In this document: piece after piece, positions 4,142-45,970 of the stretch
Position numbering within the stretch: the first letter of the stretch is position 1
Layout of the letters: every line of letters begins with the position of its first letter
Assembly: GCF_054482525.1 (NCBI RefSeq)
Contig: NZ_CM137006.1
Length of the DNA stretch: 64,000 nt
Reading direction: 5' to 3' (one strand)
Made by a program: the position numbers and the translations under genes
Notes under the pieces: model-generated
Told to the model about the DNA's origin: nothing
Database searches by the model: none
Seen by the model: the letters and a program-made list of their open reading frames with translations, nothing else

Positions 4142-4906
4142 ATGAACGATCTATTTTCACTGGCAGGAAAAAATATCTTGATTACCGGTTCAGCACAGGG
4201 CATTGGCTTTTTACTGGCAACCGGCCTGGGTAAATATGGCGCACAAATAATTATTAATGATATTACTGCCGAACGCGCAGAACTTGCTGTAGAAAAACTC
4301 CACCAGGAGGGTATTCAGGCCGTTGCCGCACCTTTTAATGTTACTCATAAACATGAAATTGATGCCGCCGTTGAACATATCGAAAAGAACATCGGCCCCA
4401 TTGATGTGCTGGTGAATAACGCCGGTATCCAGCGCCGTCATCCTTTTACTGAGTTCCCTGAACAAGAGTGGAATGATGTGATCGCAGTAAACCAGACCGC
4501 CGTGTTCCTGGTATCGCAAGCGGTAACTCGTCACATGGTTGAACGCAAGGCAGGTAAAGTTATTAATATTTGCTCGATGCAAAGCGAACTGGGACGTGAC
4601 ACCATCACCCCTTATGCCGCATCGAAAGGGGCGGTAAAAATGCTCACCCGCGGCATGTGCGTCGAGCTGGCGCGCCACAATATTCAGGTCAACGGTATTG
4701 CGCCGGGCTATTTCAAAACAGAAATGACTAAAGCACTGGTTGAGGACGAAGCCTTCACCGCCTGGTTGTGCAAACGGACCCCCGCCGCACGCTGGGGAGA
4801 TCCGCAGGAACTGATTGGTGCTGCGGTGTTCCTTTCTTCAAAAGCCTCTGATTTCGTAAACGGCCACCTGTTGTTTGTTGATGGCGGCATGTTAGTGGCT
4901 GTTTAA
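4142..4906 (+). CDS. idnO: 5-keto-D-gluconate 5-reductase (SDR family)
   Basis: 254 aa, SDR Rossmann motif TGSAQGIG and catalytic YAASK. Confidence 0.92.
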   Translation: MNDLFSLAGKNILITGSAQGIGFLLATGLGKYGAQIIINDITAERAELAVEKLHQEGIQAVAAPFNVTHKHEIDAAVEHIEKNIGPIDVLVNNAGIQRRHPFTEFPEQEWNDVIAVNQTAVFLVSQAVTRHMVERKAGKVINICSMQSELGRDTITPYAASKGAVKMLTRGMCVELARHNIQVNGIAPGYFKTEMTKALVEDEAFTAWLCKRTPAARWGDPQELIGAAVFLSSKASDFVNGHLLFVDGGMLVAV

Positions 4907-29802: not shown

Positions 29803-30062
29803 AAGGAGTCCCTCCGCACTGTCTGAAACAGTACAGAAATGTCTTCAGGCGTGGCGAAGCCTTACCTGAAGGTAATAAAGCTGAGCTGGGACGTTAAAAC
29901 GTCACGGCCTTACGCATCCGGTAACGCCGTGAAAAGACGGGCTTACCGGAAAAGTTTTAATCTCCGTCGAGGGAGAGGCGTGGGATCAGGTTCCATATAA
30001 CCTCCGGTAAGTGAAAAAAGCGCCGCAAATAATAAGGAGAATCCAATAATATTCGTAGCATC
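29803..30062 (-). promoter_or_regulatory. mgtA 5' leader (Mg2+- and proline-sensing attenuator region)
   Basis: About 260-nt untranslated leader between the putative -10 (30072..30077) and the mgtA start; contains mgtL. Confidence 0.65.
29943..29996 (-). CDS. mgtL: mgtA leader peptide (proline-rich)
   Basis: [17 protein letters not shown] (17 aa) = last 17 codons of the 113-aa ORF-track entry 29943..30284. Confidence 0.8.
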
Positions 30063-30088
30063 TATGGCGATATAATACCTGCTGGCAA

Positions 30089-30108
30089 CTAAACCAACGA
30101 TAAACCAG
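30089..30108 (-). promoter_or_regulatory. PhoP box in the mgtA promoter
   Basis: Minus strand reads CTGGTTTATCGTTGGTTTAG, a direct repeat of GGTTTA spaced 5 nt apart. Confidence 0.7.
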
Positions 30109-30180
30109 ACTTTACCCATTGCTGAATGCACGGGTAAAGTTAGGCTCAAATAATTAAACAACACGTTACGGGACAACAGG

Positions 30181-31128
30181 ATGCAAAATCGGCTGACCAT
30201 CAAAGACATCGCGCGCTTAAGCGGCGTGGGGAAATCTACGGTTTCCCGGGTGCTGAATAACGAAAGCGGCGTGAGCCAGCGCACGCGCGAGCGTGTTGAA
30301 GCAGTGATGAATCAGCATGGATTTTCCCCTTCCCGCTCTGCGCGCGCTATGCGTGGGCAAAGCGATAAAGTGGTCGCCATCATTGTGACCCGTCTGGATT
30401 CGTTGTCAGAAAATCTCGCCGTTCAAACCATGCTGCCAGCGTTCTATGAACAAGGTTACGATCCAATCATGATGGAAAGTCAGTTTTCCCCACAATTAGT
30501 TGCCGAACATTTGGGGGTGCTGAAACGGCGTAATATCGACGGCGTAGTGCTGTTCGGTTTTACCGGCATAACAGAAGAAATGATAGCCCACTGGCAGTCA
30601 TCGCTGGTTCTGCTGGCGCGTGACGCAAAAGGCTTTGCTTCGGTCTGTTATGACGACGAAGGGGCAATCAAGATCCTGATGCAACGGCTGTATGACCAGG
30701 GGCATCGTAATATCAGTTATCTCGGCGTGCCGCATAGTGACGTGACGACCGGTAAGCGACGTCACGAAGCCTACCTGGCGTTCTGCAAAGCGCATAAACT
30801 GCATCCCGTTGCCGCTCTGCCAGGCCTTGCTATGAAGCAAGGCTATGAGAACGTAGCAAAAGTGATTACGCCTGAAACTACCGCGTTACTGTGCGCAACC
30901 GACACGCTGGCACTTGGTGCAAGTAAATACCTGCAAGAGCAACGCATCGACACCTTGCAACTGGCGAGCGTCGGTAATACACCGTTAATGAAATTCCTCC
31001 ATCCGGAGATCGTCACCGTAGATCCCGGTTACGCCGAAGCTGGACGCCAGGCGGCCTGCCAGTTGATCGCGCAGGTAACCGGGCGCAGCGAACCGCAACA
31101 AATCATCATCCCCGCCACCCTGTCCTGA
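30181..31128 (+). CDS. treR: trehalose operon repressor (LacI family)
   Basis: 315 aa; HTH LTIKDIARLSGVGKSTVSRVLN. Confidence 0.95.
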   Translation: MQNRLTIKDIARLSGVGKSTVSRVLNNESGVSQRTRERVEAVMNQHGFSPSRSARAMRGQSDKVVAIIVTRLDSLSENLAVQTMLPAFYEQGYDPIMMESQFSPQLVAEHLGVLKRRNIDGVVLFGFTGITEEMIAHWQSSLVLLARDAKGFASVCYDDEGAIKILMQRLYDQGHRNISYLGVPHSDVTTGKRRHEAYLAFCKAHKLHPVAALPGLAMKQGYENVAKVITPETTALLCATDTLALGASKYLQEQRIDTLQLASVGNTPLMKFLHPEIVTVDPGYAEAGRQAACQLIAQVTGRSEPQQIIIPATLS

Positions 31129-31246
31129 TCGTTTCCTGAACGATAAATTGTGATCTTCGCTGCGTTTCGGGAACGTTCCCGTTTTTAAATTTTTCCGCGC
31201 AATATATTCTGCAGCCAACCAAAAATGTCATCTGCCATGGGGCTTT

Positions 31247-32668
31247 ATGATGAGCAAAATAAACCAAACGGATATCGATCGGTTGATTGAACTGGTCGGC
31301 GGGCGCGGCAATATTGCGACGGTGAGCCACTGTATTACTCGTCTGCGCTTTGTCCTCAACCAACCGGCCAATGCCAGACCGAAAGAAATTGAGCAACTCC
31401 CCATGGTGAAAGGCTGTTTCACCAATGCCGGGCAATTTCAGGTGGTGATTGGCACCAACGTGGGTGATTACTATCAAGCACTGATTGCGTCAACCGGACA
31501 GGCGCAGGTTGATAAAGAGCAGGTAAAAAAAGCCGCCCGGCAGAATATGAAATGGCATGAGCAGTTGATCTCTCATTTCGCGGAGATCTTCTTCCCGCTG
31601 CTGCCCGCGCTGATTAGCGGCGGTTTGATCCTCGGTTTTCGCAATGTGATCGGCGATTTACCCATGAGCAATGGTCAGACGCTGGCGCAAATGTACCCTT
31701 CCCTGCAAACGATCTACGATTTTCTGTGGTTGATCGGTGAAGCGATCTTCTTCTACCTGCCGGTCGGGATTTGCTGGTCAGCGGTGAAAAAAATGGGCGG
31801 CACGCCGATCCTTGGTATCGTGCTTGGCGTAACGCTGGTTTCTCCACAGCTGATGAACGCTTATCTGCTCGGACAGCAGCTGCCGGAAGTGTGGGACTTT
31901 GGCATGTTCAGCATCGCCAAAGTGGGCTATCAGGCGCAGGTGATCCCGGCACTGTTAGCCGGGCTGGCGCTGGGCGTTATTGAAACTCGTCTTAAGCGCA
32001 TCGTGCCGGATTACCTCTATCTGGTGGTGGTGCCCGTCTGTTCGCTGATCCTCGCGGTGTTCCTCGCCCATGCGCTGATTGGTCCGTTTGGTCGCATGAT
32101 TGGCGATGGCGTTGCCTTTGCGGTACGTCACCTGATGACCGGCAGCTTTGCTCCGATTGGCGCGGCATTGTTTGGCTTCCTGTACGCCCCGCTGGTGATC
32201 ACCGGCGTACATCAGACCACGCTTGCTATTGATTTGCAGATGATTCAAAGCATGGGTGGTACGCCAGTGTGGCCGCTGATTGCGCTGTCGAATATCGCTC
32301 AGGGTTCCGCCGTGATAGGCATTATCATTTCCAGCCGCAAGCACAATGAACGCGAGATCTCCGTGCCTGCCGCTATCTCCGCCTGGCTTGGAGTCACTGA
32401 GCCTGCTATGTACGGCATCAACCTGAAATATCGCTTCCCGATGCTGTGCGCGATGATTGGTTCTGGTCTGGCAGGATTGCTATGCGGCCTGAACGGCGTT
32501 ATGGCGAATGGCATCGGCGTAGGCGGCCTGCCGGGAATTCTCTCGATTCAACCGAGCTACTGGCAGGTGTTTGCGCTGGCAATGGCTATCGCCATCATCA
32601 TCCCGATTGTACTCACCTCGTTTATCTATCAGCGGAAATACCGCCTGGGCACGCTGGACATTGTTTAA
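31247..32668 (+). CDS. treB: PTS trehalose-specific EIIBC component
   Basis: 473 aa; EIIB cysteine motif (SHCITRLR) plus membrane EIIC domain. Confidence 0.95.
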   Translation: MMSKINQTDIDRLIELVGGRGNIATVSHCITRLRFVLNQPANARPKEIEQLPMVKGCFTNAGQFQVVIGTNVGDYYQALIASTGQAQVDKEQVKKAARQNMKWHEQLISHFAEIFFPLLPALISGGLILGFRNVIGDLPMSNGQTLAQMYPSLQTIYDFLWLIGEAIFFYLPVGICWSAVKKMGGTPILGIVLGVTLVSPQLMNAYLLGQQLPEVWDFGMFSIAKVGYQAQVIPALLAGLALGVIETRLKRIVPDYLYLVVVPVCSLILAVFLAHALIGPFGRMIGDGVAFAVRHLMTGSFAPIGAALFGFLYAPLVITGVHQTTLAIDLQMIQSMGGTPVWPLIALSNIAQGSAVIGIIISSRKHNEREISVPAAISAWLGVTEPAMYGINLKYRFPMLCAMIGSGLAGLLCGLNGVMANGIGVGGLPGILSIQPSYWQVFALAMAIAIIIPIVLTSFIYQRKYRLGTLDIV

Positions 32669-32717
32669 TTTTCTTCGGGGCGCAATTGCGCCCCCTCGCA
32701 TTTGCAGGAATAACGTA

Positions 32718-34373
32718 ATGACTAATCTTCCCCACTGGTGGCAAAACGGCGTTATCTACCAGATTTATCCAAAGAGTTTTCAGGACACCACGGGTAGCGG
32801 CACCGGCGATTTACGTGGCGTTATCCAGCGCCTGGACTATCTGCATAAACTGGGCGTTGATGCCATCTGGCTAACCCCCTTTTATGTCTCTCCCCAGGTT
32901 GATAACGGTTACGACGTAGCGAACTATACGGCGATTGATCCCACCTACGGCACGCTGGACGATTTTGACGAACTGGTGACACAGGCAAAATCGCGCGGGA
33001 TTCGTATCATTCTCGATATGGTGTTTAACCATACCTCTACCCAACATGCCTGGTTTCGCGAGGCGCTGAACAAAGCAAGCCCTTACCGCCAGTTTTATAT
33101 CTGGCGCGATGGAGAACCAGAAACGCCACCGAACAACTGGCGTTCAAAATTCGGTGGTAGTGCGTGGCGCTGGCATGCGGAAAGCGAACAGTACTATTTG
33201 CATCTCTTTGCACCAGAACAGGCGGATCTCAACTGGGAGAATCCAGCGGTACGCGCAGAGCTGAAAAAAGTCTGTGAGTTCTGGGCCGATCGTGGGGTCG
33301 ACGGGTTGCGCCTGGATGTGGTGAATCTGATCTCCAAAGACCCGCGTTTCCCTGATGACCTGGATGGCGACGGGCGTCGCTTCTACACCGACGGGCCACG
33401 AGCACACGAGTTTTTGCACGAGATGAACCGCGATGTGTTTACGCCACGCGGGTTAATGACCGTAGGTGAAATGTCCTCCACCAGCCTTGAGCATTGCCAG
33501 CGATACGCGGCTCTGACAGGCAGTGAATTGTCGATGACCTTTAATTTTCATCACCTGAAGGTCGATTATCCCGGTGGTGAGAAATGGACGCTGGCTAAAC
33601 CTGACTTTGTGGCGTTAAAAACATTGTTCCGCCACTGGCAACAAGGAATGCACAACGTGGCATGGAATGCCTTGTTCTGGTGTAACCACGATCAGCCGCG
33701 CATTGTTTCTCGCTTTGGTGATGAAGGTGAATACCGCGTGCCTGCGGCAAAAATGCTGGCGATGGTGCTGCATGGCATGCAGGGAACGCCATATATCTAC
33801 CAGGGCGAAGAGATTGGCATGACTAACCCACATTTCACGCGCATTACTGACTATCGCGACGTGGAGAGCCTCAATATGTTTGCCGAGCTGCGCAACGATG
33901 GGCGTGATACCGACGAGTTATTGGCAATCCTCGCCAGTAAATCCCGTGACAACAGTCGCACACCCATGCAATGGAGCAACGGCGATAATGCCGGGTTTAC
34001 GGCTGGCGAACCGTGGATTGGCCTGGGCGATAACTATCAGGAAATCAACGTAGAAGCCGCGCTGGCCGATGAGTCCTCGGTGTTTTACACCTACCAAAAG
34101 TTAATCGCACTGCGTAAGCAAGAAGCCGTCCTGACATGGGGCGATTACCAGGATCTGCTGCCAAACAGTCCTGTATTGTGGTGCTATCGCCGTGAATGGA
34201 AGGGGCAAACCTTGTTGGTCATTGCCAACCTTAGCCATGAGATCCAACCCTGGCAGCCAGGGCAAATGCGCGGCAACTGGCAGCTTGTGATGCATAACTA
34301 CGAAGAAGCCTCACCACAACCCTGTGCCATGACTTTACGGCCTTTTGAGGCTGTCTGGTGGTTACAGAAGTAA
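32718..34373 (+). CDS. treC: trehalose-6-phosphate hydrolase
   Basis: Start MTNLPHWWQNGVIYQIYPKSF (551 aa), GH13 family; the ORF-track start 32571 lies inside treB. Confidence 0.94.
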   Translation: MTNLPHWWQNGVIYQIYPKSFQDTTGSGTGDLRGVIQRLDYLHKLGVDAIWLTPFYVSPQVDNGYDVANYTAIDPTYGTLDDFDELVTQAKSRGIRIILDMVFNHTSTQHAWFREALNKASPYRQFYIWRDGEPETPPNNWRSKFGGSAWRWHAESEQYYLHLFAPEQADLNWENPAVRAELKKVCEFWADRGVDGLRLDVVNLISKDPRFPDDLDGDGRRFYTDGPRAHEFLHEMNRDVFTPRGLMTVGEMSSTSLEHCQRYAALTGSELSMTFNFHHLKVDYPGGEKWTLAKPDFVALKTLFRHWQQGMHNVAWNALFWCNHDQPRIVSRFGDEGEYRVPAAKMLAMVLHGMQGTPYIYQGEEIGMTNPHFTRITDYRDVESLNMFAELRNDGRDTDELLAILASKSRDNSRTPMQWSNGDNAGFTAGEPWIGLGDNYQEINVEAALADESSVFYTYQKLIALRKQEAVLTWGDYQDLLPNSPVLWCYRREWKGQTLLVIANLSHEIQPWQPGQMRGNWQLVMHNYEEASPQPCAMTLRPFEAVWWLQK

Positions 34374-34384
34374 ATCTTCGCTAA

Positions 34385-34415
34385 GCCCCGGTAATGCCTG
34401 TCATTCCGGGCTTTT
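34385..34415 (+). terminator. putative treC terminator
   Basis: Hairpin gccccgg ... ccgggc followed by TTTTG. Confidence 0.45.
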
Positions 34416-34766
34416 GCCTGTCAGTATGTTGTTTTTGTTGATTTTATAATCAAAAAATTCATTAAAAAATTTACATATCGTTGTAGCGCCCGTCATCCGT
34501 ACGCTCTGCTTTTTACTTTGAGCTACATCAAAAAAAGTTCAAACATCCTTGATGCAAAGCACTATATATAGACTTTAAAATGCGTCCCAACCCAATATGT
34601 TGTATTAATCGACTATAATTGCTACTACAGCTCCCCACGAAAAAGGTGCGGCGTTGTGGATAAGCGGATGGCGATTGCGGAAAGCACCGGAAAACGAAAC
34701 AAAAAAACCGGAAAACGCCTTTCCCAATTTCTGTGGATAACCTGTTCTTAAAAATATGGAGCGATC

Positions 34767-36905
34767 ATGACACCGCATGTGATGAAACGAGACGGCTGCA
34801 AAGTGCCGTTTAAATCAGAGCGCATCAAAGAAGCGATTCTGCGTGCAGCTAAAGCAGCGGAAGTCGATGATGCCGATTATTGCGCCACTGTTGCTGCGGT
34901 TGTCAGCGAGCAGATGCAGGGCCGCAACCAGGTGGATATCAATGAGATCCAGACCGCAGTTGAAAACCAGCTGATGTCGGGTCCATACAAACAACTGGCT
35001 CGTGCTTACATCGAGTACCGTCACGATCGCGACATTGAACGTGAAAAACGCGGTCGCCTGAACCAGGAGATCCGTGGTCTGGTCGAGCAGACCAACTCCT
35101 CGTTACTCAACGAAAACGCCAACAAAGACAGCAAGGTGATTCCAACCCAGCGCGATCTGCTGGCCGGGATCGTGGCTAAACACTATGCACGCCAGCACCT
35201 GCTGCCGCGTGACGTGGTGCAGGCACATGAACGTGGTGATATTCACTATCACGATCTCGATTACTCGCCGTTCTTCCCGATGTTCAACTGCATGTTGATC
35301 GACCTGAAAGGCATGCTGACCCAGGGCTTTAAAATGGGGAACGCCGAGATTGAACCGCCGAAGTCGATCTCTACGGCAACCGCTGTAACTGCGCAGATTA
35401 TTGCTCAGGTCGCCAGCCATATTTATGGCGGCACCACCATTAACCGTATCGATGAAGTGCTGGCACCGTTTGTCACCGCCAGCTACAACAAACATCGCAA
35501 GACCGCAGAAGAGTGGAACATCCCGGACGCCGAAGGCTACGCTAACTCTCGTACCATCAAAGAGTGCTACGATGCCTTCCAGTCGCTGGAGTACGAAGTA
35601 AACACCCTGCACACCGCCAACGGTCAAACACCGTTTGTGACCTTTGGTTTTGGTCTGGGCACCAGCTGGGAATCGCGCCTGATTCAGGAATCTATCCTGC
35701 GTAATCGTATCGCAGGCCTCGGTAAAAACCGTAAAACTGCGGTGTTCCCGAAACTGGTGTTTGCGATTCGCGATGGCCTGAACCATAAAAAAGGCGATCC
35801 GAACTACGACATCAAACAGCTGGCGCTGGAGTGCGCAAGCAAGCGCATGTATCCGGATATCCTGAACTACGATCAGGTAGTGAAAGTCACCGGTTCGTTT
35901 AAAACCCCGATGGGCTGCCGCAGCTTCCTCGGCGTGTGGGAAAATGAAAACGGCGAGCAGATCCACGATGGTCGTAACAACCTCGGCGTGATCAGCCTGA
36001 ACCTGCCGCGTATTGCTCTGGAGGCAAAAGGCGATGAAGCCACCTTCTGGAAGCTGCTGGATGAACGTCTGGTGCTGGCACGTAAGGCGCTGATGACCCG
36101 TATCGCTCGTCTCGAAGGCGTGAAAGCGCGCGTGGCCCCGATCCTCTATATGGAAGGTGCTTGTGGCGTGCGTCTCAATGCTGACGATGATGTTTCTGAA
36201 ATCTTCAAAAACGGTCGTGCGTCTATTTCGCTGGGTTACATCGGCATCCACGAAACCATTAACGCGCTGTTCGGCGGCGAGCATGTTTACGACAACGAGC
36301 AGCTTCGCGCGAAAGGTATCGCGATTGTTGAACGTCTGCGTCAGGCGGTGGATCAGTGGAAAGAAGAAACGGGTTATGGTTTCAGTCTCTACAGCACGCC
36401 AAGTGAAAACCTGTGCGACCGCTTCTGCCGTCTCGATACCGCTGAGTTTGGCGTGGTGCCGGGCGTGACCGATAAAGGTTACTACACCAACAGTTTCCAC
36501 CTTGATGTGGAGAAAAAGGTGAACCCGTATGACAAGATCGACTTTGAAGCGCCTTACCCGCCGCTGGCGAACGGTGGTTTCATTTGCTACGGCGAGTATC
36601 CAAACATTCAGCACAACCTGAAGGCGCTGGAAGATGTCTGGGATTACAGCTATCAGCATGTACCGTATTACGGCACCAATACGCCGATCGATGAGTGCTA
36701 CGAGTGTGGCTTTACCGGTGAGTTCGAGTGCACTAGTAAAGGCTTCACTTGCCCGAAATGTGGTAACCATGACGCCTCCCGTGTGTCGGTGACTCGCCGC
36801 GTGTGCGGATATTTAGGTAGCCCGGATGCACGTCCGTTTAACGCTGGTAAGCAGGAAGAAGTTAAGCGCCGCGTTAAACATTTGGGAAATGGGCAGATCG
36901 GTTAA
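34767..36905 (+). CDS. nrdD: anaerobic ribonucleoside-triphosphate reductase
   Basis: 712 aa; C-terminal glycyl-radical motif and zinc-ribbon cysteines. Confidence 0.97.
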   Translation: MTPHVMKRDGCKVPFKSERIKEAILRAAKAAEVDDADYCATVAAVVSEQMQGRNQVDINEIQTAVENQLMSGPYKQLARAYIEYRHDRDIEREKRGRLNQEIRGLVEQTNSSLLNENANKDSKVIPTQRDLLAGIVAKHYARQHLLPRDVVQAHERGDIHYHDLDYSPFFPMFNCMLIDLKGMLTQGFKMGNAEIEPPKSISTATAVTAQIIAQVASHIYGGTTINRIDEVLAPFVTASYNKHRKTAEEWNIPDAEGYANSRTIKECYDAFQSLEYEVNTLHTANGQTPFVTFGFGLGTSWESRLIQESILRNRIAGLGKNRKTAVFPKLVFAIRDGLNHKKGDPNYDIKQLALECASKRMYPDILNYDQVVKVTGSFKTPMGCRSFLGVWENENGEQIHDGRNNLGVISLNLPRIALEAKGDEATFWKLLDERLVLARKALMTRIARLEGVKARVAPILYMEGACGVRLNADDDVSEIFKNGRASISLGYIGIHETINALFGGEHVYDNEQLRAKGIAIVERLRQAVDQWKEETGYGFSLYSTPSENLCDRFCRLDTAEFGVVPGVTDKGYYTNSFHLDVEKKVNPYDKIDFEAPYPPLANGGFICYGEYPNIQHNLKALEDVWDYSYQHVPYYGTNTPIDECYECGFTGEFECTSKGFTCPKCGNHDASRVSVTRRVCGYLGSPDARPFNAGKQEEVKRRVKHLGNGQIG

Positions 36906-36926
36906 TCTTCACTCTGCGCTAAGCAA

Positions 36927-37055
<129 letters not shown>

Positions 37056-37062
37056 CGAAATA

Positions 37063-37527
37063 ATGAATTATCATCAGTACTATCCTGTCGACATCGTCAA
37101 CGGCCCCGGCACTCGCTGCACCCTGTTTGTCTCCGGGTGTGTTCATGAATGCCCCGGTTGCTATAACAAAAGCACCTGGCGGGTAAATTCCGGTCAGCCA
37201 TTTACCAAAGCAATGGAAGACCAGATCATTAACGATCTGAATGACACTCGCATCAAACGCCAGGGGATTTCCCTCTCCGGCGGCGATCCGCTGCATCCGC
37301 AAAACGTGCCGGATATTCTGAAACTGGTACAACGCATCCGCGCCGAATGTCCGGGTAAAGACATTTGGGTGTGGACAGGCTATAAACTCGACGAACTCAA
37401 CGCTGCGCAAATGCAGGTTGTTGATTTGATTAACGTACTGGTCGACGGCAAATTTGTGCAGGATTTAAAAGACCCTTCCCTGATCTGGCGCGGCAGCAGC
37501 AATCAGGTGGTGCATCATTTGCGTTAG
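37063..37527 (+). CDS. nrdG: anaerobic ribonucleotide reductase activating protein (radical SAM)
   Basis: 154 aa; radical-SAM cysteine motif CVHECPGC. Confidence 0.95.
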   Translation: MNYHQYYPVDIVNGPGTRCTLFVSGCVHECPGCYNKSTWRVNSGQPFTKAMEDQIINDLNDTRIKRQGISLSGGDPLHPQNVPDILKLVQRIRAECPGKDIWVWTGYKLDELNAAQMQVVDLINVLVDGKFVQDLKDPSLIWRGSSNQVVHHLR

Positions 37528-37818
37528 TCACTCATCCAGCCGTTTAGTCGCGTCTTCATAAACGGCTGAGTTCTCTCTCTTACCAATAGCTATCACCAAC
37601 ACGAGCAACTCTTTATCGTTAACCTGATAAACCAGGCGATATCCCTGTGTGCGCAGCTTAATTTTGTAGCAGTCCGGTAAATCCCGCAGTTTAGCCGATG
37701 GATTGCGCGGCCTTTTCAGCACATCCTCAAGCTTTTTTTTAAATTGTTCCCGGACTGTCACGCCCAGTTTTTGCCACTCTTTCAGCGCCCGCGGATCAAA
37801 CGCCAGCTCATAGTTCAT
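37528..37818 (-). CDS. RelE/StbE-family type II toxin (mRNA interferase)
   Basis: 96 aa from MNYELAFDPRALKEWQKLG...; closely resembles K-12 RelE (MAYFLDFDERALKEWRKLG...DCYKIKLRSSGYRLVYQV...). The ORF-track entry 37528..37896 over-extends the N-terminus. Confidence 0.8.
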   Translation of the reverse strand: MNYELAFDPRALKEWQKLGVTVREQFKKKLEDVLKRPRNPSAKLRDLPDCYKIKLRTQGYRLVYQVNDKELLVLVIAIGKRENSAVYEDATKRLDE

Positions 37819-38050
37819 CCAGTCGGACCTTAATGGCCTCTTGTGGGTTGGCCAGTCGTTCCCTGACAGTGCGTAACAAGGCTTCTTCACTATCACTGAC
37901 AGTGAGCGTTTTTACCGGCATTCGTCCATTTTCCGCAACGTACTGAAACAGCAGTCGCACTGCTTCAGTAGGCGTGATATTTAATTTTTCCAGCACCGCA
38001 TAAGCCTCATTTTTCAGTTTGTCATCCAGGCGGACGTTAAGTGTGGCCAT
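37808..38050 (-). CDS. RelB/DinJ-family antitoxin
   Basis: 80 aa MATLNVRLDDKLKNEAYAVLEKL... resembling RelB; overlaps the toxin start by 11 nt; GGAGGC RBS upstream. Confidence 0.8.
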   Translation of the reverse strand: MATLNVRLDDKLKNEAYAVLEKLNITPTEAVRLLFQYVAENGRMPVKTLTVSDSEEALLRTVRERLANPQEAIKVRLDEL

Positions 38051-38072
38051 TATGCCTCCGGTAATTATGAAA

Positions 38073-38110
38073 AGTGTAATGCATTATAGCATTACATATG
38101 CATTACATTC
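38073..38110. promoter_or_regulatory. candidate autoregulatory operator of the relBE-like cassette
   Basis: Repeated palindromic motif tgtaatgcattat / agcattacatatgcattacat 25-60 nt upstream of the antitoxin start. Confidence 0.45.
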
Positions 38111-38208
38111 ATTTCTGGAAAACGCCTCGCAAAAATGAGGACGACACGCAGGAATATGCCGTGGTGAAGATAGATATTGCGGTGATTTTACGAAGGGAGA
38201 AGAAAGCG

Positions 38209-38234
38209 TTGGGCGGTAACGTTTCACCGCCCAA
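38209..38234 (-). terminator. putative cybC terminator hairpin
   Basis: ttgggcggt-aacgtttc-accgcccaa just downstream of the cybC stop. Confidence 0.4.
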
Positions 38235-38241
38235 TAAGGAA

Positions 38242-38631
<390 letters not shown>

Positions 38632-38810
38632 TCACTTCCTTTTTTATTTACACTTCATCCTTCACACTGCCTCATCGACGGCTACGCTCATTCGCCCGAG
38701 TCACGTACTGCGAGTACGCTCCCCGGCCCTCATTCACTTTCCGTCTCGATGCAGTGCGAATGATTTTGTGTAATTTTTTAGTTTATAGCGCGGCAGGTCG
38801 CGCCAGTTTT

Positions 38811-40163
38811 TTACTGCCCGGCGATTTTCATCTCCGGCAACAGCACAGAACCACACTGTATATTACTGCGTGTTTCAATATCGTTACCGACGGTGACAAT
38901 ATTGCGCCACATATCTTTTAAATTACCTGCGATGGTGATTTCACTAACCGGATACTGAATTTCGCCATTCTCTACCCAGAAGCCCGCTGCACCACGGGAA
39001 TAATCACCGGTAATGGCACTCACGCCCTGGCCCATCAGCTCCGTCACCACCAGCCCGGTACCCATCTCTTTGAGCATTTGTTCGAAGCTTAGCCCTTGTC
39101 CGGCAATCCGCCAGTTGTGAATACCGCCTGCGTGTCCAGTGCTTTTCAGCCCCAGTTTCCGCGCCGAGTAGCTGGTCAGCAGCCACTGAGTCAGAATGCC
39201 ATCTTTAATAATATCGCGACGCTCGGTGCGCACACCTTCGCTGTCGAATGGCGTAGAGGCCAGCCCTTTCAGCAGATGCGGATGCTCTTCAATGGTCAGC
39301 CAGTCCGGCAGAATTTGTTTACCCAGCGAATCCAGCAGGAAGGTAGATTTACGGTAAACCGATCCACCCGCTATCGCCCCCACCAGATGCCCAAAAAGCC
39401 CGGTTGCCACTTCATTGGCAAAAATGACCGGCGCTTTCATGGTGGAGAGTTTACGCGGTGACAGGCGCGATAAAGTACGGCGAGCACAGTCGGCCCCAAC
39501 CCACTCTGGCGTTTGCAGATCGCTCATCGCACGACCAATGGTGTAGGCGTAATCACGCTCCATATCGCCATTTTCTTCAGCAATTACACAGCTGGAGAGC
39601 GAATGACGCGTAGAGCAGTAACCCTGCAACATGCCGTGGCTGTTGCCGAAAACTTTGACACCGTAGTGGCTGTTAAAGCTGCCGCCTTCGGTATTGGTGA
39701 TGCGTTTGTCCGCCTGCAATGCCGCCTGTTCTGCGCGGGCCGCCAGTTCAATGGCTTCATCCGGGGAAACTTCCGCAGGGTGGAACAAGTCGAGATCCGG
39801 TGCGTCAAAGGCCAGCAGCTCTTTGTCTGCCACGCCGGCACAGGGATCTGGCGAGGTATAACGGGCAATATCCAGTGCCGCCTGTACGGTGCGGGCAATG
39901 GCCTGCGGGCTTAAATCGGTAGACGATGCGCTACCTTTGCGGTTCTGGTGATAAACAGTGATCCCCAACGCGCCATCGCTATTGAATTCAACATTCTCCA
40001 CTTCACCATAACGCGTGCTTACGCTAATGCCGGTGGTCTTGCTGACGGCAACTTCCGCACCGTCCGATTTGCCTGAGGCCAACTCCAGCGCAGTGGAAAC
40101 TGCTTCTTCCAGAATCTTGCGCTGCGCTTCAACTTGAGAGATTACTTTCATTGCAAGTGCCAT
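38811..40163 (-). CDS. pmbA: metalloprotease TldE (PmbA), microcin B17 maturation / CcdA degradation
   Basis: 450 aa; matches PmbA/TldE. Confidence 0.94.
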
Positions 40164-40256
40164 AATGTAGAGAGTTTCTCTGAAGTCTAACAGAGAACCG
40201 TTTTTCAGTGCGCATCTTAACTGGTAACATTAGCCTCTTTTTTTAAGGAGCCTGAG

Positions 40257-40808
40257 ATGACTAAGCAGCCCGAAGACTGGCTCGACGACGTTCCCGGTGA
40301 TGACATCGAAGACGAAGGCGATGAAATTATCTGGGTCAGTAAAAGTGAAATTAAACGCGATGCCGAAGAGCTAAAACGCCTTGGCGCGGAAATTGTTGAT
40401 CTGGGGAAAAACGCGCTGGATAAGATCCCGTTAGATGCGGATCTGCGCGCGGCTATTGAGCTCGCCCAGCGTATTAAGATGGAAGGTCGCCGCCGCCAGT
40501 TGCAGCTCATCGGTAAGATGCTGCGCCAGCGCGATGTTGAACCGATCCGTCAGGCGCTGGATAAGCTGAAAAACCGTCACAACCAGCAGGTGGTACTGTT
40601 CCATAAACTGGAAAACCTGCGCGATCGTCTGATCGACCAGGGTGATGACGCCATCGCTGAAGTATTAAATCTGTGGCCCGATGCCGATCGTCAGCAACTG
40701 CGAACTCTGATCCGCAACGCGAAGAAAGAGAAAGAAGGGAATAAGCCGCCGAAATCCGCACGCCAGATTTTCCAGTATCTGCGCGAGTTAGCGGAGAACG
40801 AAGGGTAA
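40257..40808 (+). CDS. yjgA: ribosome-associated protein DarP (YjgA, DUF615)
   Basis: 183 aa; matches YjgA. Confidence 0.9.
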
Positions 40809-40834
40809 TTTTCGTTGTTGATGTGAGTATGGTT

Positions 40835-41630
<796 letters not shown>

Positions 41631-41734
41631 ATCAGCATACTTGTCCTTAGCCTTCTGCAGTGACAGCTGGTAGTACAGCGTGCTTCTGGCCAGCCCTGCA
41701 GCCTTTAACAGGTCAGACTGGCAGTGTCCGCACC

Positions 41735-42265
41735 TCAGGCTCCGGATGACTTTCGTTTTTTCTCCAGCTCCTGGCGCTTTTTTTCCAGGAGATGCTCCTG
41801 CATGGCTTTCAGATATGCATTTTCTGCGCGAAGATAACGCAGCTCATTCTTCATCTCTTCCGGCGTCATGTTTGCCTCGTTTTCATGGGTATCATCAGAA
41901 CGGGTCATGCTTTTCTCCTTCCTGCGCCTGATAAAGGCCTCATTACCAGATTTGCGGTAGCCTTTTATCCAGTTTTTAACCGTGTTGTGGCTGGGAATGT
42001 TAAACCGGGCAGCTACCCGGGGTAGAGACTCAGAATGCCCGAGAGCATAAAGAACCACGCAAAGTTTATCTTCAGGAGAATAGCTACGCTTGTGTCTGCA
42101 ATCCAGTGCCCGAGGACCGTGAAGAAGAAAAAGATTAATCCAGTGTGAGAGGCTGGTGTGAGAAAGTTGAAAGAGTTTTGCCGTAGAAATGATGCCTGCA
42201 TGACCAGCCAGGTAGTGATTTACAGCGGCAAGTTTTACTTCAAATGAATGTTTCATAAACTGCAC
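41735..42265 (-). CDS. IS3-family transposase OrfA (HTH DNA-binding protein)
   Basis: 176 aa with HTH and C-terminal leucine-zipper-like region (LRYLRAENAYLKAMQEHLLEKKRQELEKKRK). Confidence 0.8.
   Translation of the reverse strand: MQFMKHSFEVKLAAVNHYLAGHAGIISTAKLFQLSHTSLSHWINLFLLHGPRALDCRHKRSYSPEDKLCVVLYALGHSESLPRVAARFNIPSHNTVKNWIKGYRKSGNEAFIRRRKEKSMTRSDDTHENEANMTPEEMKNELRYLRAENAYLKAMQEHLLEKKRQELEKKRKSSGA
41777..41785 (-). other. programmed -1 ribosomal frameshift site (A AAA AAG) joining OrfA to OrfB
   Basis: Minus-strand gaaaaaaag heptad near the orfA C-terminus; orfB frame is -1 relative to orfA. Confidence 0.55.
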
Positions 42266-42307
42266 CTTCAGATGTCAGATTATGTCCAACATTTGGGGTG
42301 CAGTTCA

Positions 42308-42375
42308 TCAAGCGTCGCATCAGGCACTATGCTCAAATGCCGGATGCGGCGTAAACGCTTTATCCGGCATACACA
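42308..42375. repeat. REP palindromic units, right half of interrupted unit plus adjacent REP
   Basis: tcaagcgtcgcatcaggc ... atgccggatgcggcgtaaacgctttatccggcatac. Confidence 0.7.
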
Positions 42376-42394
42376 CACATGCAAGGCTTCAGAA

Positions 42395-43768
42395 TTACTG
42401 CGCGGCTTCCGCTTTCTTCGCCAGTCCATCCAGCAGTTTCTGATGGATCCCACCAAAACCGCCATTGCTCATCACCAGAATATGGTCGCCAGGCTGAGCG
42501 GTTTTCACCACCATATCTGCCAGCGTATCCACATCGCCGCTCCAGTGTGCAGGCTGAACGCAGGCTTCTGCCACTTCTGCCACCTGCCACGGAATATGCG
42601 CCGGTTGCAGCAGGAAGACTTCATCGGCACGACCTAATGAAGGTGCCAGATCGTCTTTGCAGATCCCCATTTTCATGGTATTCGAGCGCGGTTCCAGCAC
42701 AGCAATAATGCGCGCCGTACCACCAACTTTGCCACGCAGCGCCGCCAGCGTTGCCAGAATCGCCGTCGGGTGATGGGCAAAATCGTCATATACCGTGACG
42801 CCATTCGCTTCACCACGCAACTCCAGACGGCGACGAGCATTAATAAACGAACCCAGCGCGTTAGCGGCATCTGCCGGCGCTACACCAACATGGCGAGCCG
42901 CCGCAATCGCCATCAGGCCATTGTGCATATTATGTTCGCCTACCAGCGACCATTTCACTTCACCCACTTTTTCGCCATCCAGCAAGACTTCCCATTCAGA
43001 AGCGTCAGTGGTCAGCTTTTTCGCCTGCCAGTGACCTTGCTCGCCCACCAGCTCCTGCTCGCTCCAACAGCCCATCGCCATGGTCTGTTTCAGGTTGATG
43101 TCGTTTTCCGGCCAGATAATACGGCCCTGCCCCGGAACGATACGCACCAGATGGTGGAACTGTTTCTGGATCGCTTTCAGGTCGTCAAAGATATCGGCGT
43201 GATCGAACTCAAGGTTGTTGAGGATCAGCGTACGCGGGCAGTAATGGACAAATTTAGAGCGTTTGTCGAAGAAGGCGCAGTCGTACTCATCCGCTTCGAT
43301 AACAAAGAAGTCGCTTTCGCCCAGACGCGCCGAGACCTCAAAGTTCCCCGGCACACCGCCGATCACAAATCCTGGTTTGTAACCGCACTGTTCCAGAATC
43401 CAGGTCGCCATTCCCGCTGTAGTCGTTTTACCGTGTGTACCGGCGACGGCCAGCACCCAACGGTCACGCAGCACAAAATCGTGCAGCCACTGCGGACCTG
43501 ACATATAAGGGATGTTTTTTTCCAGTACCGCTTCCACACACGGATTTCCACGGGTCATGGCGTTGCCAATAATCACCAGATCCGGCTGCGGTTCGAGCTG
43601 GCTGGCATCGTAACCCTGAATCAGTTCAATGCCTTGCTTCTCAAGTAAGGTGCTCATCGGCGGATACACATTGGCGTCCGAACCCGTTACTTCATGGCCT
43701 AACTGGCGCGCCAGCATCGCCAGACCGCCCATAAACGTGCCACAAATTCCTAAAATATGAATGCGCAT
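42395..43768 (-). CDS. mpl: UDP-N-acetylmuramate:L-alanyl-gamma-D-glutamyl-meso-diaminopimelate ligase
   Basis: 457 aa; Mur ligase ATP-binding motif GTHGKTTT. Confidence 0.95.
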
Positions 43769-43943
43769 ACGTCACTATCCTTTTTTAATCTGCCGCTCAT
43801 TTTACGCATATGTCGGGCAAGTGAGAAACGCATTTCAGGATAATCCGCAATTTGCTGGCGCGATTCACCTGAGCGCAACATTGAGATTATTTGTTAAGAT
43901 TGTTGCGGTCGCTTTACTCCATAAACATTGCAGGGAAAGTTTT

Positions 43944-44942
43944 ATGAAAACGTTAGGTGAATTTATTGTCGAAAAGCAGCACGAGTTTTCTCATGCTACC
44001 GGTGAGCTCACTGCTTTGCTGTCGGCAATAAAACTGGGCGCCAAGATTATCCATCGCGATATCAACAAAGCAGGACTGGTTGATATCCTGGGTGCCAGCG
44101 GTGCTGAGAACGTGCAGGGCGAGGTTCAGCAGAAACTCGACTTGTTCGCTAATGAAAAACTGAAAGCCGCACTGAAAGCACGCGATATCGTTGCGGGCAT
44201 TGCCTCTGAAGAAGAAGATGAGATTGTCGTCTTTGAAGGCTGTGAACACGCAAAATACGTGGTGCTGATGGACCCCCTGGATGGCTCGTCCAACATCGAT
44301 GTTAACGTCTCTGTCGGTACCATTTTCTCCATCTACCGCCGCGTTACGCCTGTTGGCACGCCGGTAACGGAAGAAGATTTCCTCCAGCCTGGTAACAAAC
44401 AGGTTGCGGCAGGTTACGTGGTATACGGCTCCTCTACCATGCTGGTTTACACCACCGGATGCGGTGTTCACGCCTTTACTTACGATCCTTCGCTCGGCGT
44501 TTTCTGCCTGTGCCAGGAACGGATGCGCTTCCCGGAGAAAGGTAAAACCTACTCCATCAACGAAGGAAACTACATTAAGTTTCCGAACGGGGTGAAGAAG
44601 TACATTAAATTCTGCCAGGAAGAAGATAAATCCACCAATCGCCCGTATACCTCGCGTTATATCGGTTCACTGGTTGCGGATTTCCACCGTAACCTGCTGA
44701 AAGGCGGTATTTATCTCTACCCAAGCACCGCCAGCCACCCGGACGGCAAACTGCGTTTGCTGTATGAGTGCAACCCGATGGCATTCCTGGCGGAACAAGC
44801 GGGCGGTAAAGCGAGCGATGGCAAAGAGCGTATTCTGGATATCATCCCGGAAACCCTGCACCAGCGCCGTTCATTCTTTGTCGGCAACGACCATATGGTT
44901 GAAGATGTCGAACGCTTTATCCGTGAGTTCCCGGACGCGTAA
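43944..44942 (+). CDS. fbp: fructose-1,6-bisphosphatase class I
   Basis: Start [15 protein letters not shown] (332 aa) inside ORF 43761..44942, which would otherwise overlap mpl. Confidence 0.95.
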
Positions 44943-44949
44943 TCTCCTG

Positions 44950-44978
44950 CGCCTCTCCACACGGAGAGGCGTTTTTAT
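44950..44978. terminator. bidirectional terminator between convergent fbp and yjfF
   Basis: Hairpin cgcctctcc-acac-ggagaggcg followed by TTTTTAT. Confidence 0.7.
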
Positions 44979-45970
44979 CGCTGCGCAATATTGACTCTTG
45001 CCACTGGCGAACTCTGGCGATTCTCCCACAGCACCGTTAATCCACGCTGTAATGCTATAAAAATAAACAACAAAATACCGATGGCGATTTTCGTCCACCA
45101 TGAGCTCAGCGTGCCATCAAAGTTTATGTAAGTCTGAATCAGTCCCTGAATCGCCACGCCAAAAAGCGTTCCCAGCACCGTTCCTACCCCACCACTTAAC
45201 AACGTACCACCAATCACCACCGACGCGATGGCGTCCAGTTCCACACCTACGCCCGCCAGCGCATATCCTGCCTGGGTATAAATCGAGAAGACAATCCCCG
45301 CCAGCGTTGCCAGTCCGGTGGAGAGCATATAAATGCGAATAGTGGTGCTGCGAGTGGAAATCCCCATCAGGTTCGCCGACGTTGCGTTGCCGCCAATGGC
45401 GTATACCTGATTACCAAAACGGGTACGATGCGCGAGGAATATGCCGATAACCACCACCGCCAGCATCAGCAGCCCCATCGCACTTAAGCGACCGCCGCCA
45501 GGGATTTTCCATGCAAGGCTTGAGAGCGTGTCATAAATGGGGTGGTTTATCGGGATCGACTCTTCCGAAACGAGATAGCTGACGCCGCGCAAAAAGAACA
45601 TCCCTGCAAGGGTAATGATAAATGCCGGGATCTTCAGGGCGTCGATCAAAAGCCCCATAAATGCGCCAAAGGCACAGCCCATTACCAACACCAGCGGAAA
45701 CGCCAGCAACGGCGAGAGGCCGAAATCGCCAATCACTTTTGCCAGAAACACGCCGGTAAAGGCGATCACCGAACCGACGGAGAGATCGATCCCACCGGAG
45801 AGGATCACAAAGGTCATGCCAACGGCGATGATCCCCAGAAAAGCGTTATCGGTCAGGATATTGCAGATCACTCTTGTGGAAGCAAAACCGGGAAACTGCG
45901 TCAGACAGTAGAGATAACCCAGCACAAAGACGCCGATGGTGATCATCAGCGGCAGGTTACGTTTTATCAC
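44975..45970 (-). CDS. yjfF: galactofuranose ABC transporter permease
   Basis: 331 aa polytopic ABC permease. Confidence 0.9.
   Translation of the reverse strand: MIKRNLPLMITIGVFVLGYLYCLTQFPGFASTRVICNILTDNAFLGIIAVGMTFVILSGGIDLSVGSVIAFTGVFLAKVIGDFGLSPLLAFPLVLVMGCAFGAFMGLLIDALKIPAFIITLAGMFFLRGVSYLVSEESIPINHPIYDTLSSLAWKIPGGGRLSAMGLLMLAVVVIGIFLAHRTRFGNQVYAIGGNATSANLMGISTRSTTIRIYMLSTGLATLAGIVFSIYTQAGYALAGVGVELDAIASVVIGGTLLSGGVGTVLGTLFGVAIQGLIQTYINFDGTLSSWWTKIAIGILLFIFIALQRGLTVLWENRQSSPVARVNIAQR

Follow-up and report, generated by a model that had tools for sequence, protein, structure and literature searches.

A RelBE-family toxin–antitoxin operon convergent on nrdG in Escherichia coli, probably an old enterobacterial locus lost by most sequenced strains

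Among described systems, two stand closest to the locus reported here: RelBE of Escherichia coli K-12 (b1563/b1564; structures 4FXE, 4V7J/4V7K and 2K29), which lies in prophage Qin and is followed by hokD/relF, and the STM4449–STM4450 pair of Salmonella enterica (SL1344_4379-4380), named ‘RelBE’ in one study (PMC4669091) and relBE2ST in another (PMC4366850). Induction of S. Typhimurium relE (SL1344 4379-4380) arrests growth, with relief upon co-expression of relB, and leads to higher ciprofloxacin tolerance (PMC4669091); functional toxicity was likewise seen for RelE2ST (SL4379-4380) (PMC4366850). In a paper since retracted, over-expression of STM4450 in E. coli BL21 caused only slight attenuation of growth (PMC3868539), a result that carries little weight, and toxicity may depend on the level of expression. 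The primers of PMC4669091 encode MTYELEFDP and MATLNV, in agreement with the Salmonella proteins aligned here. Enterobacteriaceae plasmids, hundreds of them from E. coli, Klebsiella and Pantoea, carry relBE/stbDE-type modules with RelE-family toxins, sharing 65–77% local DNA identity with parts of the relE described below; the matches are partial (15–70% of the query), many of these modules pair the toxin with Phd/YefM antitoxins, unlike the RelB of our locus, and the near-full-length plasmid matches are to chromosome- or megaplasmid-sized records filed as plasmids.

In the window, the 64,000-nucleotide stretch of contig NZ_CM137006.1 (RefSeq assembly GCF_054482525.1) analysed here, a gene pair of this kind lies on the minus strand between nrdG and cybC (Table 1). 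A preliminary description had proposed two overlapping genes for an 80-residue RelB-like and a 96-residue RelE-like protein, and both reading frames are present, relB coming first in a bicistronic operon and overlapping relE by 11 nt (ATGAACTATGA). RefSeq/PGAP places the gene boundaries identically in a genome with a 100% identical cassette (relE, WP_001105433.1; relB, WP_000212715.1). Assignment to a known family, also proposed at that stage, agrees with the curated RelE and RelB models that the proteins pass and with their already correct names in RefSeq. On sequence grounds, the locus is an intact and already annotated type II RelB/RelE-family toxin–antitoxin operon, and it is very probably a functional chromosomal one, the Escherichia orthologue of Salmonella STM4449–STM4450. 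Judged from substitution patterns, the intact alleles of both genes are under purifying selection (dN/dS of 0.08–0.36 for relE and 0–0.33 for relB), with RelE evolving 2–3 times faster than RelB at the protein level (dN of 0.18–0.32 versus 0.06–0.14). PADLOC defence models gave only a sub-threshold RelE-domain match (E = 0.003), with no catalogued defence system indicated, and a literature search, in which cybC-related papers were judged by title and abstract, found no paper on the E. coli nrdG-side relBE.

Table 1. Features of the relBE cassette and its surroundings, in window coordinates.
Feature	Position	Strand	Basis or remark
Whole presence/absence segment, 709 nt	37525..38233		Window junctions compared with loci L002 and L003
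relE-type toxin gene, 96 aa	37528..37818	−	Open reading frame and translation; internal ATG of a listed 122-aa reading frame
TCATCCAG(C/T)CG microhomology	left 37532..37542, right 37815-37825		Direct repeat
10-bp perfect hairpin, CAGCCGTTTA/TAAACGGCTG, 12-nt loop	37537..37568	+	Within the last relE codons
(AG)n run, relE codons K80-R81-E82	37572..37581	−	2-nt frameshifts recur here in relatives
A8 homopolymer in relE, codons F26-K29	37733..37740	−	Frameshifts recur here in relatives
relB-type antitoxin/autorepressor gene, 80 aa	37808..38050	−	Predicted N-terminal ribbon-helix-helix and RelE-binding C-terminus
5′ leader	38051..38074	−	GGAGG ribosome-binding site at 38056-38060, 5 nt upstream of the relB ATG, read from the sequence
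Predicted promoter and putative operator	38075..38107	−	Gene strand: ATGTAATGC-ATA-TGTAATGC-TATAAT-GCATTACA
Upstream homologous stretch	38108..38135	−	blastn-short and alignment to other genera
Escherichia-specific spacer between cybC and the relBE promoter	38136..38241	−	No homology outside Escherichia

The toxin scores above the cut-offs of Pfam PF05016 (55.9 bits; cut-off 23) and NCBIfam TIGR02385 RelE_StbE (29.9 bits; cut-off 27.9), matches the solved RelE structures 4V7K/4FXE (phmmer E = 2e-35) and is 65% identical to K-12 RelE over 94 residues without a gap. Residues K52, K54, R61, R81 and Y87 of K-12 RelE, a set reportedly identified as catalytic by Neubauer and colleagues in 2009, all align to identical residues of the toxin, which thus has five of the five conserved RelE positions, and all five are invariant in 12 of 12 nrdG-linked RelE orthologues. 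A catalytic role of R81 and Y87 is also backed by PMC12301738 and PMC3507626. Given its 65% identity to the K-12 enzyme, the window RelE would be expected to cleave A-site codons in a ribosome-dependent manner. The antitoxin passes PF04221 RelB (58.6 bits; cut-off 22.4), the RelB equivalog NF008412 (130.1 bits; cut-off 96) and TIGR02384 (73.8 bits; cut-off 45.65); its residues 1–80 align to residues 1–79 of RelB chain 4FXE_A (phmmer 1e-20), and it is 48% identical to K-12 RelB over the full length. For both proteins, similarity of this degree greatly exceeds what chance would give.

The window pair thus shares family and architecture with K-12 RelBE, although no similarity between the two cassettes is detectable at the DNA level (‘distant’ blastn), and it occupies a core-genome slot beside nrdG rather than a prophage. 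Its earlier designation as a second RelBE paralogue can be kept in part: at protein level it is a paralogue of Qin relBE, and the statement holds at the level of the species. The Salmonella pair is the positional orthologue (RelB 84% and RelE 69% identical), likewise convergent on nrdG with 0–3 nt between the stop codons, an 11-nt gene overlap and a three-box operator. Upstream of relB, Salmonella has the PRD-regulator sugar island STM4440–4448, whereas in E. coli an Escherichia-specific spacer of 190 nt leads to cybC; its RelE has 94 residues and ends in ...KRL, as against 96 residues ending in ...KRLDE in the window. Residue 45 of RelE is Arg in the window and in K-12 but Asn in Salmonella; the remaining nrdG-linked orthologues mostly have His there.

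Upstream of relB are three boxes of the TGTAATGC type, located at 38075-38082 (TGTAATGC), 38089-38096 (GCATTACA) and 38100-38107 (a third box, again GCATTACA); two are direct and 11 nt apart, one is inverted, and between TGTAATGC and the first GCATTACA box lies the −10 hexamer TATAAT (38083-38088, gene strand), which the boxes bracket. Across nine sequences representing six genera none of the three boxes varies, in contrast to the surrounding bases, and the leader GGAGGCATAATGG is invariant across six genera. The palindromic operator of the preliminary description was recovered by the repeat search, as a combination of inverted and direct boxes. The core TGTAA of the boxes matches the hexad [A/T]TGT[A/C]A of the K-12 operator relO, established by mutagenesis and footprinting (PMC2812701). 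Both operators are built of TGTAA(T) repeats overlapping the −10, with a different layout: in K-12 four hexads make up two 12-bp half-sites that abut, and in the window three 8-nt boxes flank TATAAT. A consensus promoter scan of 37400-38400 reported no −35/−10 promoter, and the −35 region is poor; we assign a promoter here because TATAAT is perfect, has a TG upstream of it and is conserved across genera, and the TGc preceding the hexamer may constitute an extended −10. Within Escherichia, relB together with the operator shows unusually low divergence.

Beyond the operator, DNA homology to other genera ends at about 38135, at the stop codon of the PRD-regulator gene; the counterpart of 38108–38135 in those genera spans this stop codon, TGA there and TGC in Escherichia. 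Positions 24–85 of the spacer have blastn-short homology to 11 loci (84–92%), and a tblastn search of the 190-nt spacer found no remnant of the PRD-regulator gene. Two terminator-like hairpins are situated in the spacer on the minus strand, at 38234-38209 and 38162-38141, and the hairpin region 38209-38241 is identical in E. albertii.

The mode of action proposed here is modelled on K-12 RelBE by close homology. The extended −10 promoter would transcribe relB and then relE, and the 11-nt overlap suggests that the translation of the two is coupled. Dimers of RelB are predicted to bind the three TGTAATGC boxes around the −10 through the N-terminal ribbon-helix-helix, repressing the operon, with RelE as co-repressor under conditional cooperativity, and the C-terminus of RelB would neutralize RelE by wrapping around it and displacing the C-terminal helix that carries Y87. 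Upon depletion of RelB, which in K-12 occurs through Lon, free RelE would enter the ribosomal A site and cleave mRNA with K52, K54, R61, R81 and Y87, halting translation and growth. Lability to Lon and conditional cooperativity of the window RelB are expected by extension from K-12 RelBE (PMC2812701, PMC3507626). The system itself adds little, as RelBE is a textbook mRNA-interferase pair, is named in RefSeq and has been tested in its Salmonella orthologue.

In K-12 MG1655, nrdG is followed by cybC at a distance of 44 nt, in line with the preliminary description, and the pair is missing from K-12. In 5,426 complete E. coli genomes the cassette is in the minority, with about 390 genomes (about 7%) carrying it in full and about 65 in part, the partial cassettes being relB-only where inspected. 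A 41-nt hairpin filler, one copy per genome, takes its place in 4,960 genomes (~91%). In these empty genomes the whole segment is replaced by ATGATAAGTTCCCTGTTACCTGAGTGCAGGCAACAGGGAAA, which contains a hairpin and provides nrdG with its stop codon; the filler, single-copy wherever present, is no repeat element and does not occur in the Salmonella loci. Between strains whose flanking nrdD and pmbA differ by 2–7%, the cassette and the non-coding spacer remain 99.6–100% identical (in strain E69, 191 of 191 spacer positions are identical and pmbA is 92.9% identical). Being more alike between lineages than its flanks, the cassette therefore also moves by homologous recombination.

The accessory insertion relative to K-12 that was originally suggested is not borne out. 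The order nrdG→ ←relE–relB is found in Salmonella (annotated STM4449), Klebsiella, Citrobacter, Enterobacter and Kosakonia, placing the same pair, orientation, nrdG junction and operator in at least six genera, and these syntenic homologues are 80–91% (RelB) and 60–75% (RelE) identical to the window proteins, as against only 37–56% for non-syntenic RelB. The Salmonella order yjgA-pmbA-cybC-[STM4440-4448]-relBE-nrdG-nrdD equals that of E. coli with the island added. E. albertii also has the nrdG–relEB–cybC layout, as does at least one further Escherichia lineage, in loci whose flanks are 91–93% identical to E. coli (7–8% diverged), and the 94.2% identity of relE to that of E. albertii is close to the 90–93% of its flanks. 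No integrase, insertion sequence, transposase, tRNA target, flanking direct repeats or target-site duplications were found at the locus, where only core genes flank the pair, and nothing there marks a mobile genomic islet or an integrated element; its GC content, 48% as against 51–54% in the flanks, was counted as no compositional anomaly. In the phage collection the sole match was a misfiled Salmonella chromosomal contig, and in the plasmid search true plasmids matched at 60–80% identity only, none carrying the cassette (one ‘plasmid’ record matching at ≥99% is a 4.9-Mb chromosome filed as a plasmid). The pair is probably ancestral and was probably lost by most E. coli, including K-12, rather than gained by this strain, loss being a more economical reading of the absence in most E. 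coli than insertion. A recent horizontal insertion at the nrdG–cybC junction, confined to a minority of E. coli lineages and with the K-12 arrangement ancestral, would fit the patchy distribution, the lateral exchange evident in cassettes more alike than their flanks, and the structure of the empty allele (as the empty site holds 41 nt of unrelated filler, simple deletion does not lead from either allele to the other); set against the conservation across genera and the lack of a mobile source, it appears improbable. On the favoured reading, a slot convergent on nrdG would be old and conserved across Enterobacteriaceae, with the adjacent sugar-utilization island absent in Escherichia and relBE replaced by a short hairpin in most E. 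coli, K-12 among them. What the comparison offers is a correction: an apparent insertion relative to K-12 is probably an old enterobacterial locus lost by ~91% of sequenced E. coli.

Intermediate states of such a loss occur in relatives. The A8 tract is altered with a net loss of 1 nt in E. albertii L017 (A6GG) and in locus L094 (T+A6); locus L093 has the same gap at the tract, and L095 and L097 share the truncated relE call of 82 residues. One AG unit is missing from the (AG)n run in E. coli E69 (L006) and 2020CK-00188 (L090, annotated ‘frameshifted’). The microhomology exists in two copies because the two proteins have the C-terminal ending ...RLDE in common, and in E. coli O145 RM12275 relE is deleted exactly between them, leaving a 79-residue RelB abutting nrdG. 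The locus is thus probably ancestral and decaying through frameshifts at A8 and (AG)n and through microhomology-mediated deletion of relE, and inactivation of the toxin is frequent enough in relatives that a live toxin is not selected for in every case. The repeated toxin inactivation at two slippage tracts, the clean deletion and the 91% complete loss, together with the faster evolution of RelE and the slight toxicity of STM4450 in the one retracted study (PMC3868539), could also mean that the window pair is itself a remnant, intact by chance, its function gone through an attenuated toxin or a silent operon, and heading for loss. We consider this very unlikely: in the window the frames are open, the five catalytic residues, ribosome-binding site and operator are all intact, relE is constrained among intact alleles, and the Salmonella orthologue was toxic and neutralized in two independent studies (PMC4366850, PMC4669091). 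Least credible is a gyrase poison of the ParE type in place of a RelE-type mRNA endonuclease, a notion invited by the names of the best Pfam matches (PF05016 ‘ParE_toxin’ and PF15781 ‘ParE-like_toxin’); PF05016 spans the entire RelE/ParE superfamily, the gap-free identity to K-12 RelE, the retained RNase residues and the match to RelE_StbE point to RelE, and the partner passes the RelB equivalog and falls below the cut-off of the RelB_ParD model (30.2 versus 60 bits), leaving this reading a negligible probability. A ParE-type toxin with a ParD-type antitoxin is effectively refuted by the RelE identity and the RelB equivalog partner. With an intact RelBE pair, frameshifted toxins, an orphan antitoxin and full replacement all in one chromosomal slot, the locus provides a natural allelic series that could serve the study of chromosomal toxin–antitoxin decay and of the protection that an orphan RelB may give against related plasmid-borne toxins.

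The relE stop codon (37528-37530) directly abuts that of nrdG (37525-37527), with no intergenic base between them. This leaves the hairpin in the last codons of relE as the only candidate nrdDG terminator. The arms of this hairpin encode A-V-Y87 and K-R-L of RelE; on the nrdG-sense strand it starts 10 nt past the nrdG stop codon, with AGTTCTCTCTCTT after it, a pyrimidine-rich stretch antisense to the relE codons G-K-R81-E. Its minimum free energy is −14.6 kcal/mol (z = −4.0), and none of 200 shuffled sequences was equally stable. Stems of at least 8 bp are present in 11 of the 13 distinct nrdG-linked relE sequences and in 2 of 55 non-syntenic homologues, the Arg93 codon is CGG in 12 of 13 versus 13 of 55, and three base pairs of the hairpin show compensatory changes. 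We infer from this that the hairpin is a candidate nrdDG terminator or 3′-end structure. The terminator idea is tempered by a terminator scan of the orthologous Salmonella region, in which the relE hairpin was not flagged because of a weak T-tract.

A physical integration of the nrdG-linked relBE with the anaerobic nrdDG operon through this hairpin is speculative and unlikely. If the hairpin does terminate or stabilize nrdDG transcripts, the C-terminal coding sequence of relE could experience dual selection, in keeping with the compensatory changes and with a CGG codon that is rare yet near-fixed. Read-through from the FNR-induced nrdDG transcript, running antisense to relE, could then couple toxin expression to anaerobiosis, and the presence of a replacement hairpin directly after nrdG in every empty E. 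coli allele would be explained. The hairpin that the relE coding sequence shares with the end of the nrdDG operon offers a small and testable example of how constraints can overlap where two genes converge. Rfam, searched over 36900-38800 at a permissive threshold, gave no match in the cassette or the spacer. REP-type naRNA4 matches lie between nrdD and nrdG, and a weak match lies in the cybC–pmbA spacer.

Between nrdG and cybC is a minus-strand cassette of two genes, a relB-like antitoxin gene and a relE-like toxin gene, overlapping by 11 nt (ATGAACTATGA). The preliminary description of two overlapping genes encoding an 80-aa RelB and a 96-aa RelE agrees with the open reading frames, the family models and the PGAP gene boundaries, which are the same in a genome whose cassette matches this one at 100% identity. 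PGAP names the products 'RelB/DinJ family antitoxin' (WP_000212715.1) and 'RelE family toxin' (WP_001105433.1), and E. coli PCN033 is identical to the window across 30000–46000.

Coordinates of the cassette genes and of the hairpin at the nrdG–relE junction
Feature	Position in window	Strand	Remark
relB-like antitoxin gene, 80 aa	37808–38050	minus	ORF
relE-like toxin gene, 96 aa	37528–37818	minus	internal ATG of a 122-aa mechanically listed ORF
perfect 10-bp hairpin	arms 37537–37546 and 37559–37568	plus (nrdG sense)	starts 10 nt past the nrdG stop, in the last relE codons

The toxin matches PF05016 (55.9 bits, cut-off 23) and TIGR02385 RelE_StbE (29.9 bits, cut-off 27.9), and the antitoxin matches PF04221 (58.6 bits, cut-off 22.4) and the NCBIfam RelB equivalog NF008412 (130.1 bits, cut-off 96). 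Toxin residues 1–94 align gap-free to the E. coli K-12 RelE structures 4V7K and 4FXE (E = 2e-35), the alignment of the antitoxin to RelB structure 4FXE_A covers the entire protein (E = 1e-20), and BLASTP identities of 65% to K-12 RelE and 48% to K-12 RelB uphold the family assignment first proposed. Retained in the window toxin, at the same positions as in K-12 RelE, are K52, K54, R61, R81 and Y87, the established set of RelE catalytic residues; for R81 and Y87 this role is backed by published work (PMC12301738, PMC3507626). A ParE-type gyrase poison was considered and rejected, the Pfam label 'ParE_toxin' being a superfamily name and no indicator of gyrase poisoning. The pair is an already-known system, as first judged, annotated in RefSeq and with a characterized orthologue in Salmonella.

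On the gene strand, the region 5′ of relB reads ATGTAATGC-ATA-TGTAATGC-TATAAT-GCATTACA, followed by the leader, in which a ribosome-binding site, GGAGG, lies 5 nt upstream of the ATG. Two operator boxes are direct and 11 nt apart, and the third, inverted, lies beyond the perfect −10 hexamer, which is preceded by TGc as in an extended −10; the repeats correspond to I9, D11 and D15 in the repeat-finder output. When nine sequences from six genera are aligned, neither the three boxes nor the ribosome-binding site show any change and the neighbouring bases are variable, a phylogenetic footprint that bears out the putative palindromic operator of the preliminary description. The K-12 relO hexad [A/T]TGT[A/C]A, defined through mutagenesis and footprinting (PMC2812701), is matched by the window operator core TGTAA. 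A simple consensus scan of the relBE region returned no −35/−10 promoter, so the relBE promoter is assigned by inference. By homology, RelB dimers would act on the three boxes to repress this promoter, RelE serving as co-repressor, and the RelB C-terminus would sequester RelE; nothing in the window sequence contradicts such a mechanism.

Induction of S. Typhimurium relE (SL1344 4379–4380, equivalent to STM4449–4450) results in growth arrest, relieved by relB co-expression, and in higher ciprofloxacin tolerance (PMC4669091); the primers used encode MTYELEFDP and MATLNV, as in the aligned Salmonella orthologue sequences. RelE2ST (SL4379–4380) was rated a functional toxin in an independent study (PMC4366850), and slight attenuation only was described for STM4450 in E. 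coli BL21, in a retracted paper (PMC3868539). Both genes are under constraint, with dN/dS of 0.08–0.36 for intact relE alleles and 0–0.33 for relB, and at the protein level RelE changes 2–3 times faster than RelB (between-genus dN of 0.18–0.32 for RelE, 0.06–0.14 for RelB and 0.03–0.08 for nrdG). Repeatedly and independently, relE has been inactivated by slippage: an A8 run (37733–37740) has lost a net 1 nt in both E. albertii and a diverged Escherichia lineage, and E. coli E69 and 2020CK-00188 each lack one unit of an (AG)n run at codons K80-R81-E82 (37572–37581). The window keeps the reading frame at both tracts. relB is kept intact, although in E. albertii its 5′ part is deleted.

Among toxin homologues from one genome per species, with flanks screened by tblastn, relBE is convergent on nrdG in Citrobacter amalonaticus, three Enterobacter, three Kosakonia, Salmonella enterica and Klebsiella pneumoniae, and likewise in the unclassified Proteobacteria MAG CTSoil_132, with 0–3 nt between the nrdG and relE stop codons. 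Identity to the window RelB is 80–91% in these syntenic genomes versus 37–56% for non-syntenic homologues; for RelE it is 60–75% in the syntenic group. In Salmonella, where the relBE genes next to nrdG are annotated STM4449 and STM4450, and in the other syntenic genera, a PRD-domain regulator and a sugar-utilization operon (STM4440–4448) separate relB from cybC, whereas Escherichia has the same gene order without this island. The homology of E. coli to the other genera spans the operator and stops at the regulator's stop codon (~38135). The order nrdG–relE–relB–cybC is also found in the frameshifted E. albertii locus, in the Escherichia lineage with flanks 91–93% identical to E. coli, and in loci carrying a RelB variant assigned by NCBI to E. 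fergusonii, with flanks 96–98% identical to the window.

As stated in the preliminary description, nrdG in K-12 MG1655 is directly followed by cybC, across a 44-nt gap and without the pair. Among 5,426 complete genomes, a 901-nt query spanning the locus identified 390 with the entire cassette, and a cassette-only query found it at full length in 389; in whole or in part, it is present at at least 90% identity in 454 records. Empty genomes carry a 41-nt filler (ATGATAAGTTCCCTGTTACCTGAGTGCAGGCAACAGGGAAA) that supplies the nrdG stop codon and a hairpin, with exactly one copy in each of 4,960 genomes, and the presence/absence segment is 709 nt long (37525–38233). Partial cassettes, a third state of the locus, occur in about 65 complete genomes. 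In the one inspected, E. coli O145 RM12275, relE is missing exactly between two TCATCCAG(C/T)CG copies (37532–37542 and 37815–37825), leaving an orphan 79-aa RelB abutting nrdG (L088, the RM12275 locus, 1497–1736). relE was lost there through recombination between these 8–11-nt microhomology copies, which exist because RelE and RelB both terminate in RLDE.

The cassette was at first taken for an accessory insertion relative to K-12. Absence from most E. coli stands (4,960 genomes with filler against 390 with the full cassette), but insertion is probably the wrong direction, even though simple deletion from the occupied allele does not yield the empty one and cassettes often differ less between strains than the flanking sequences do. 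The same pair, with operator homology, is convergent on nrdG in other enteric genera, and its order recurs elsewhere in Escherichia, including E. albertii. There is no sign of a mobile element at relBE: terminal repeats, integrase, IS and tRNA were not found around the cassette, which has a GC content of 48% versus 51–54% in its neighbours. As for a donor, a search of the phage collection gave a misfiled Salmonella chromosomal contig as its sole match, and true plasmids reach only 60–80% identity, mostly over part of the query. Loss by most E. coli of an ancestral enterobacterial locus is the more economical reading and probably the correct one, and the cassette is better described as retained here and lost by K-12.

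The greater similarity of cassettes than of flanks indicates that the cassette also moves between lineages by homologous recombination. Between strain E69 and the window, the 191-nt spacer is identical at 191 of 191 positions, with pmbA only 92.9% identical. Compared with the diverged Escherichia lineage, relB and its operator (37800–38100) show 6 differences in 300 nt (~2%), against 6–10 per 100 nt in the flanks (genes 7–8% diverged) and 23 per 100 nt in the spacer just upstream of this block; dS is 0.034 for relB versus 0.33–0.45 for nrdG, cybC and pmbA. This low divergence is most likely due to short-tract recombination between lineages.

The nrdG stop codon (37525–37527) directly abuts that of relE (37528–37530), and the hairpin beyond it has a minimum free energy of −14.6 kcal/mol (z = −4.0; 0 of 200 shuffles as stable). 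Directly 3′ of it, extending to 37581, is a pyrimidine-rich tract, AGTTCTCTCTCTT. The arms comprise the A-V-Y87 and K-R-L codons, and the tract is antisense to G-K-R81-E-N. Stems of 8 bp or more are found in 11 of 13 distinct nrdG-linked relE sequences versus 2 of 55 non-syntenic homologues, and the rare CGG codon for Arg93 in 12 of 13 versus 13 of 55. This conservation covers six genera, with compensatory changes in three pairs and a covariation score above that of 497 of 500 shuffles, in a small sample of related sequences. The hairpin may serve as an nrdDG terminator or 3′-end stabilizer; at the orthologous Salmonella site a terminator scan made no call, and the T-tract there is weak. It seems improbable that nrdDG and relBE are coupled in their regulation.

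On the other side of nrdG, the nrdD–nrdG spacer (36918–37043) varies more between Escherichia lineages than any other stretch (47–55 differences per 100 nt), with sub-threshold Rfam naRNA4 matches on both strands that we read as REP-type repeats. The cybC–pmbA spacer (38629–38810) is 182 nt long in the window versus 52–54 nt in the cassette-bearing CFSAN018748 and 2020CK-00188; the extra ~130 nt have a weak Rfam V_AS5 match (E = 0.024) and presumably resemble a degenerate ERIC/IRU intergenic repeat. In K-12, cybC (L003, the MG1655 locus, 2173–2538) is annotated at 366 nt versus 387 nt in the window (38242–38628), 7 codons shorter, and the last codons of the two alleles differ. This difference explains why megablast matches of K-12 and O157:H7 to the locus end at nrdG. 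Chromosomal records are filed among 'phages' and 'plasmids', namely a Salmonella Infantis SARB27 contig, a 5.37-Mb Klebsiella 'plasmid' and a 4.9-Mb E. coli 'plasmid' (L086 and L089 being Salmonella records and L087 Klebsiella), and three 'plasmid' placements in the cassette and filler counts may have the same cause.
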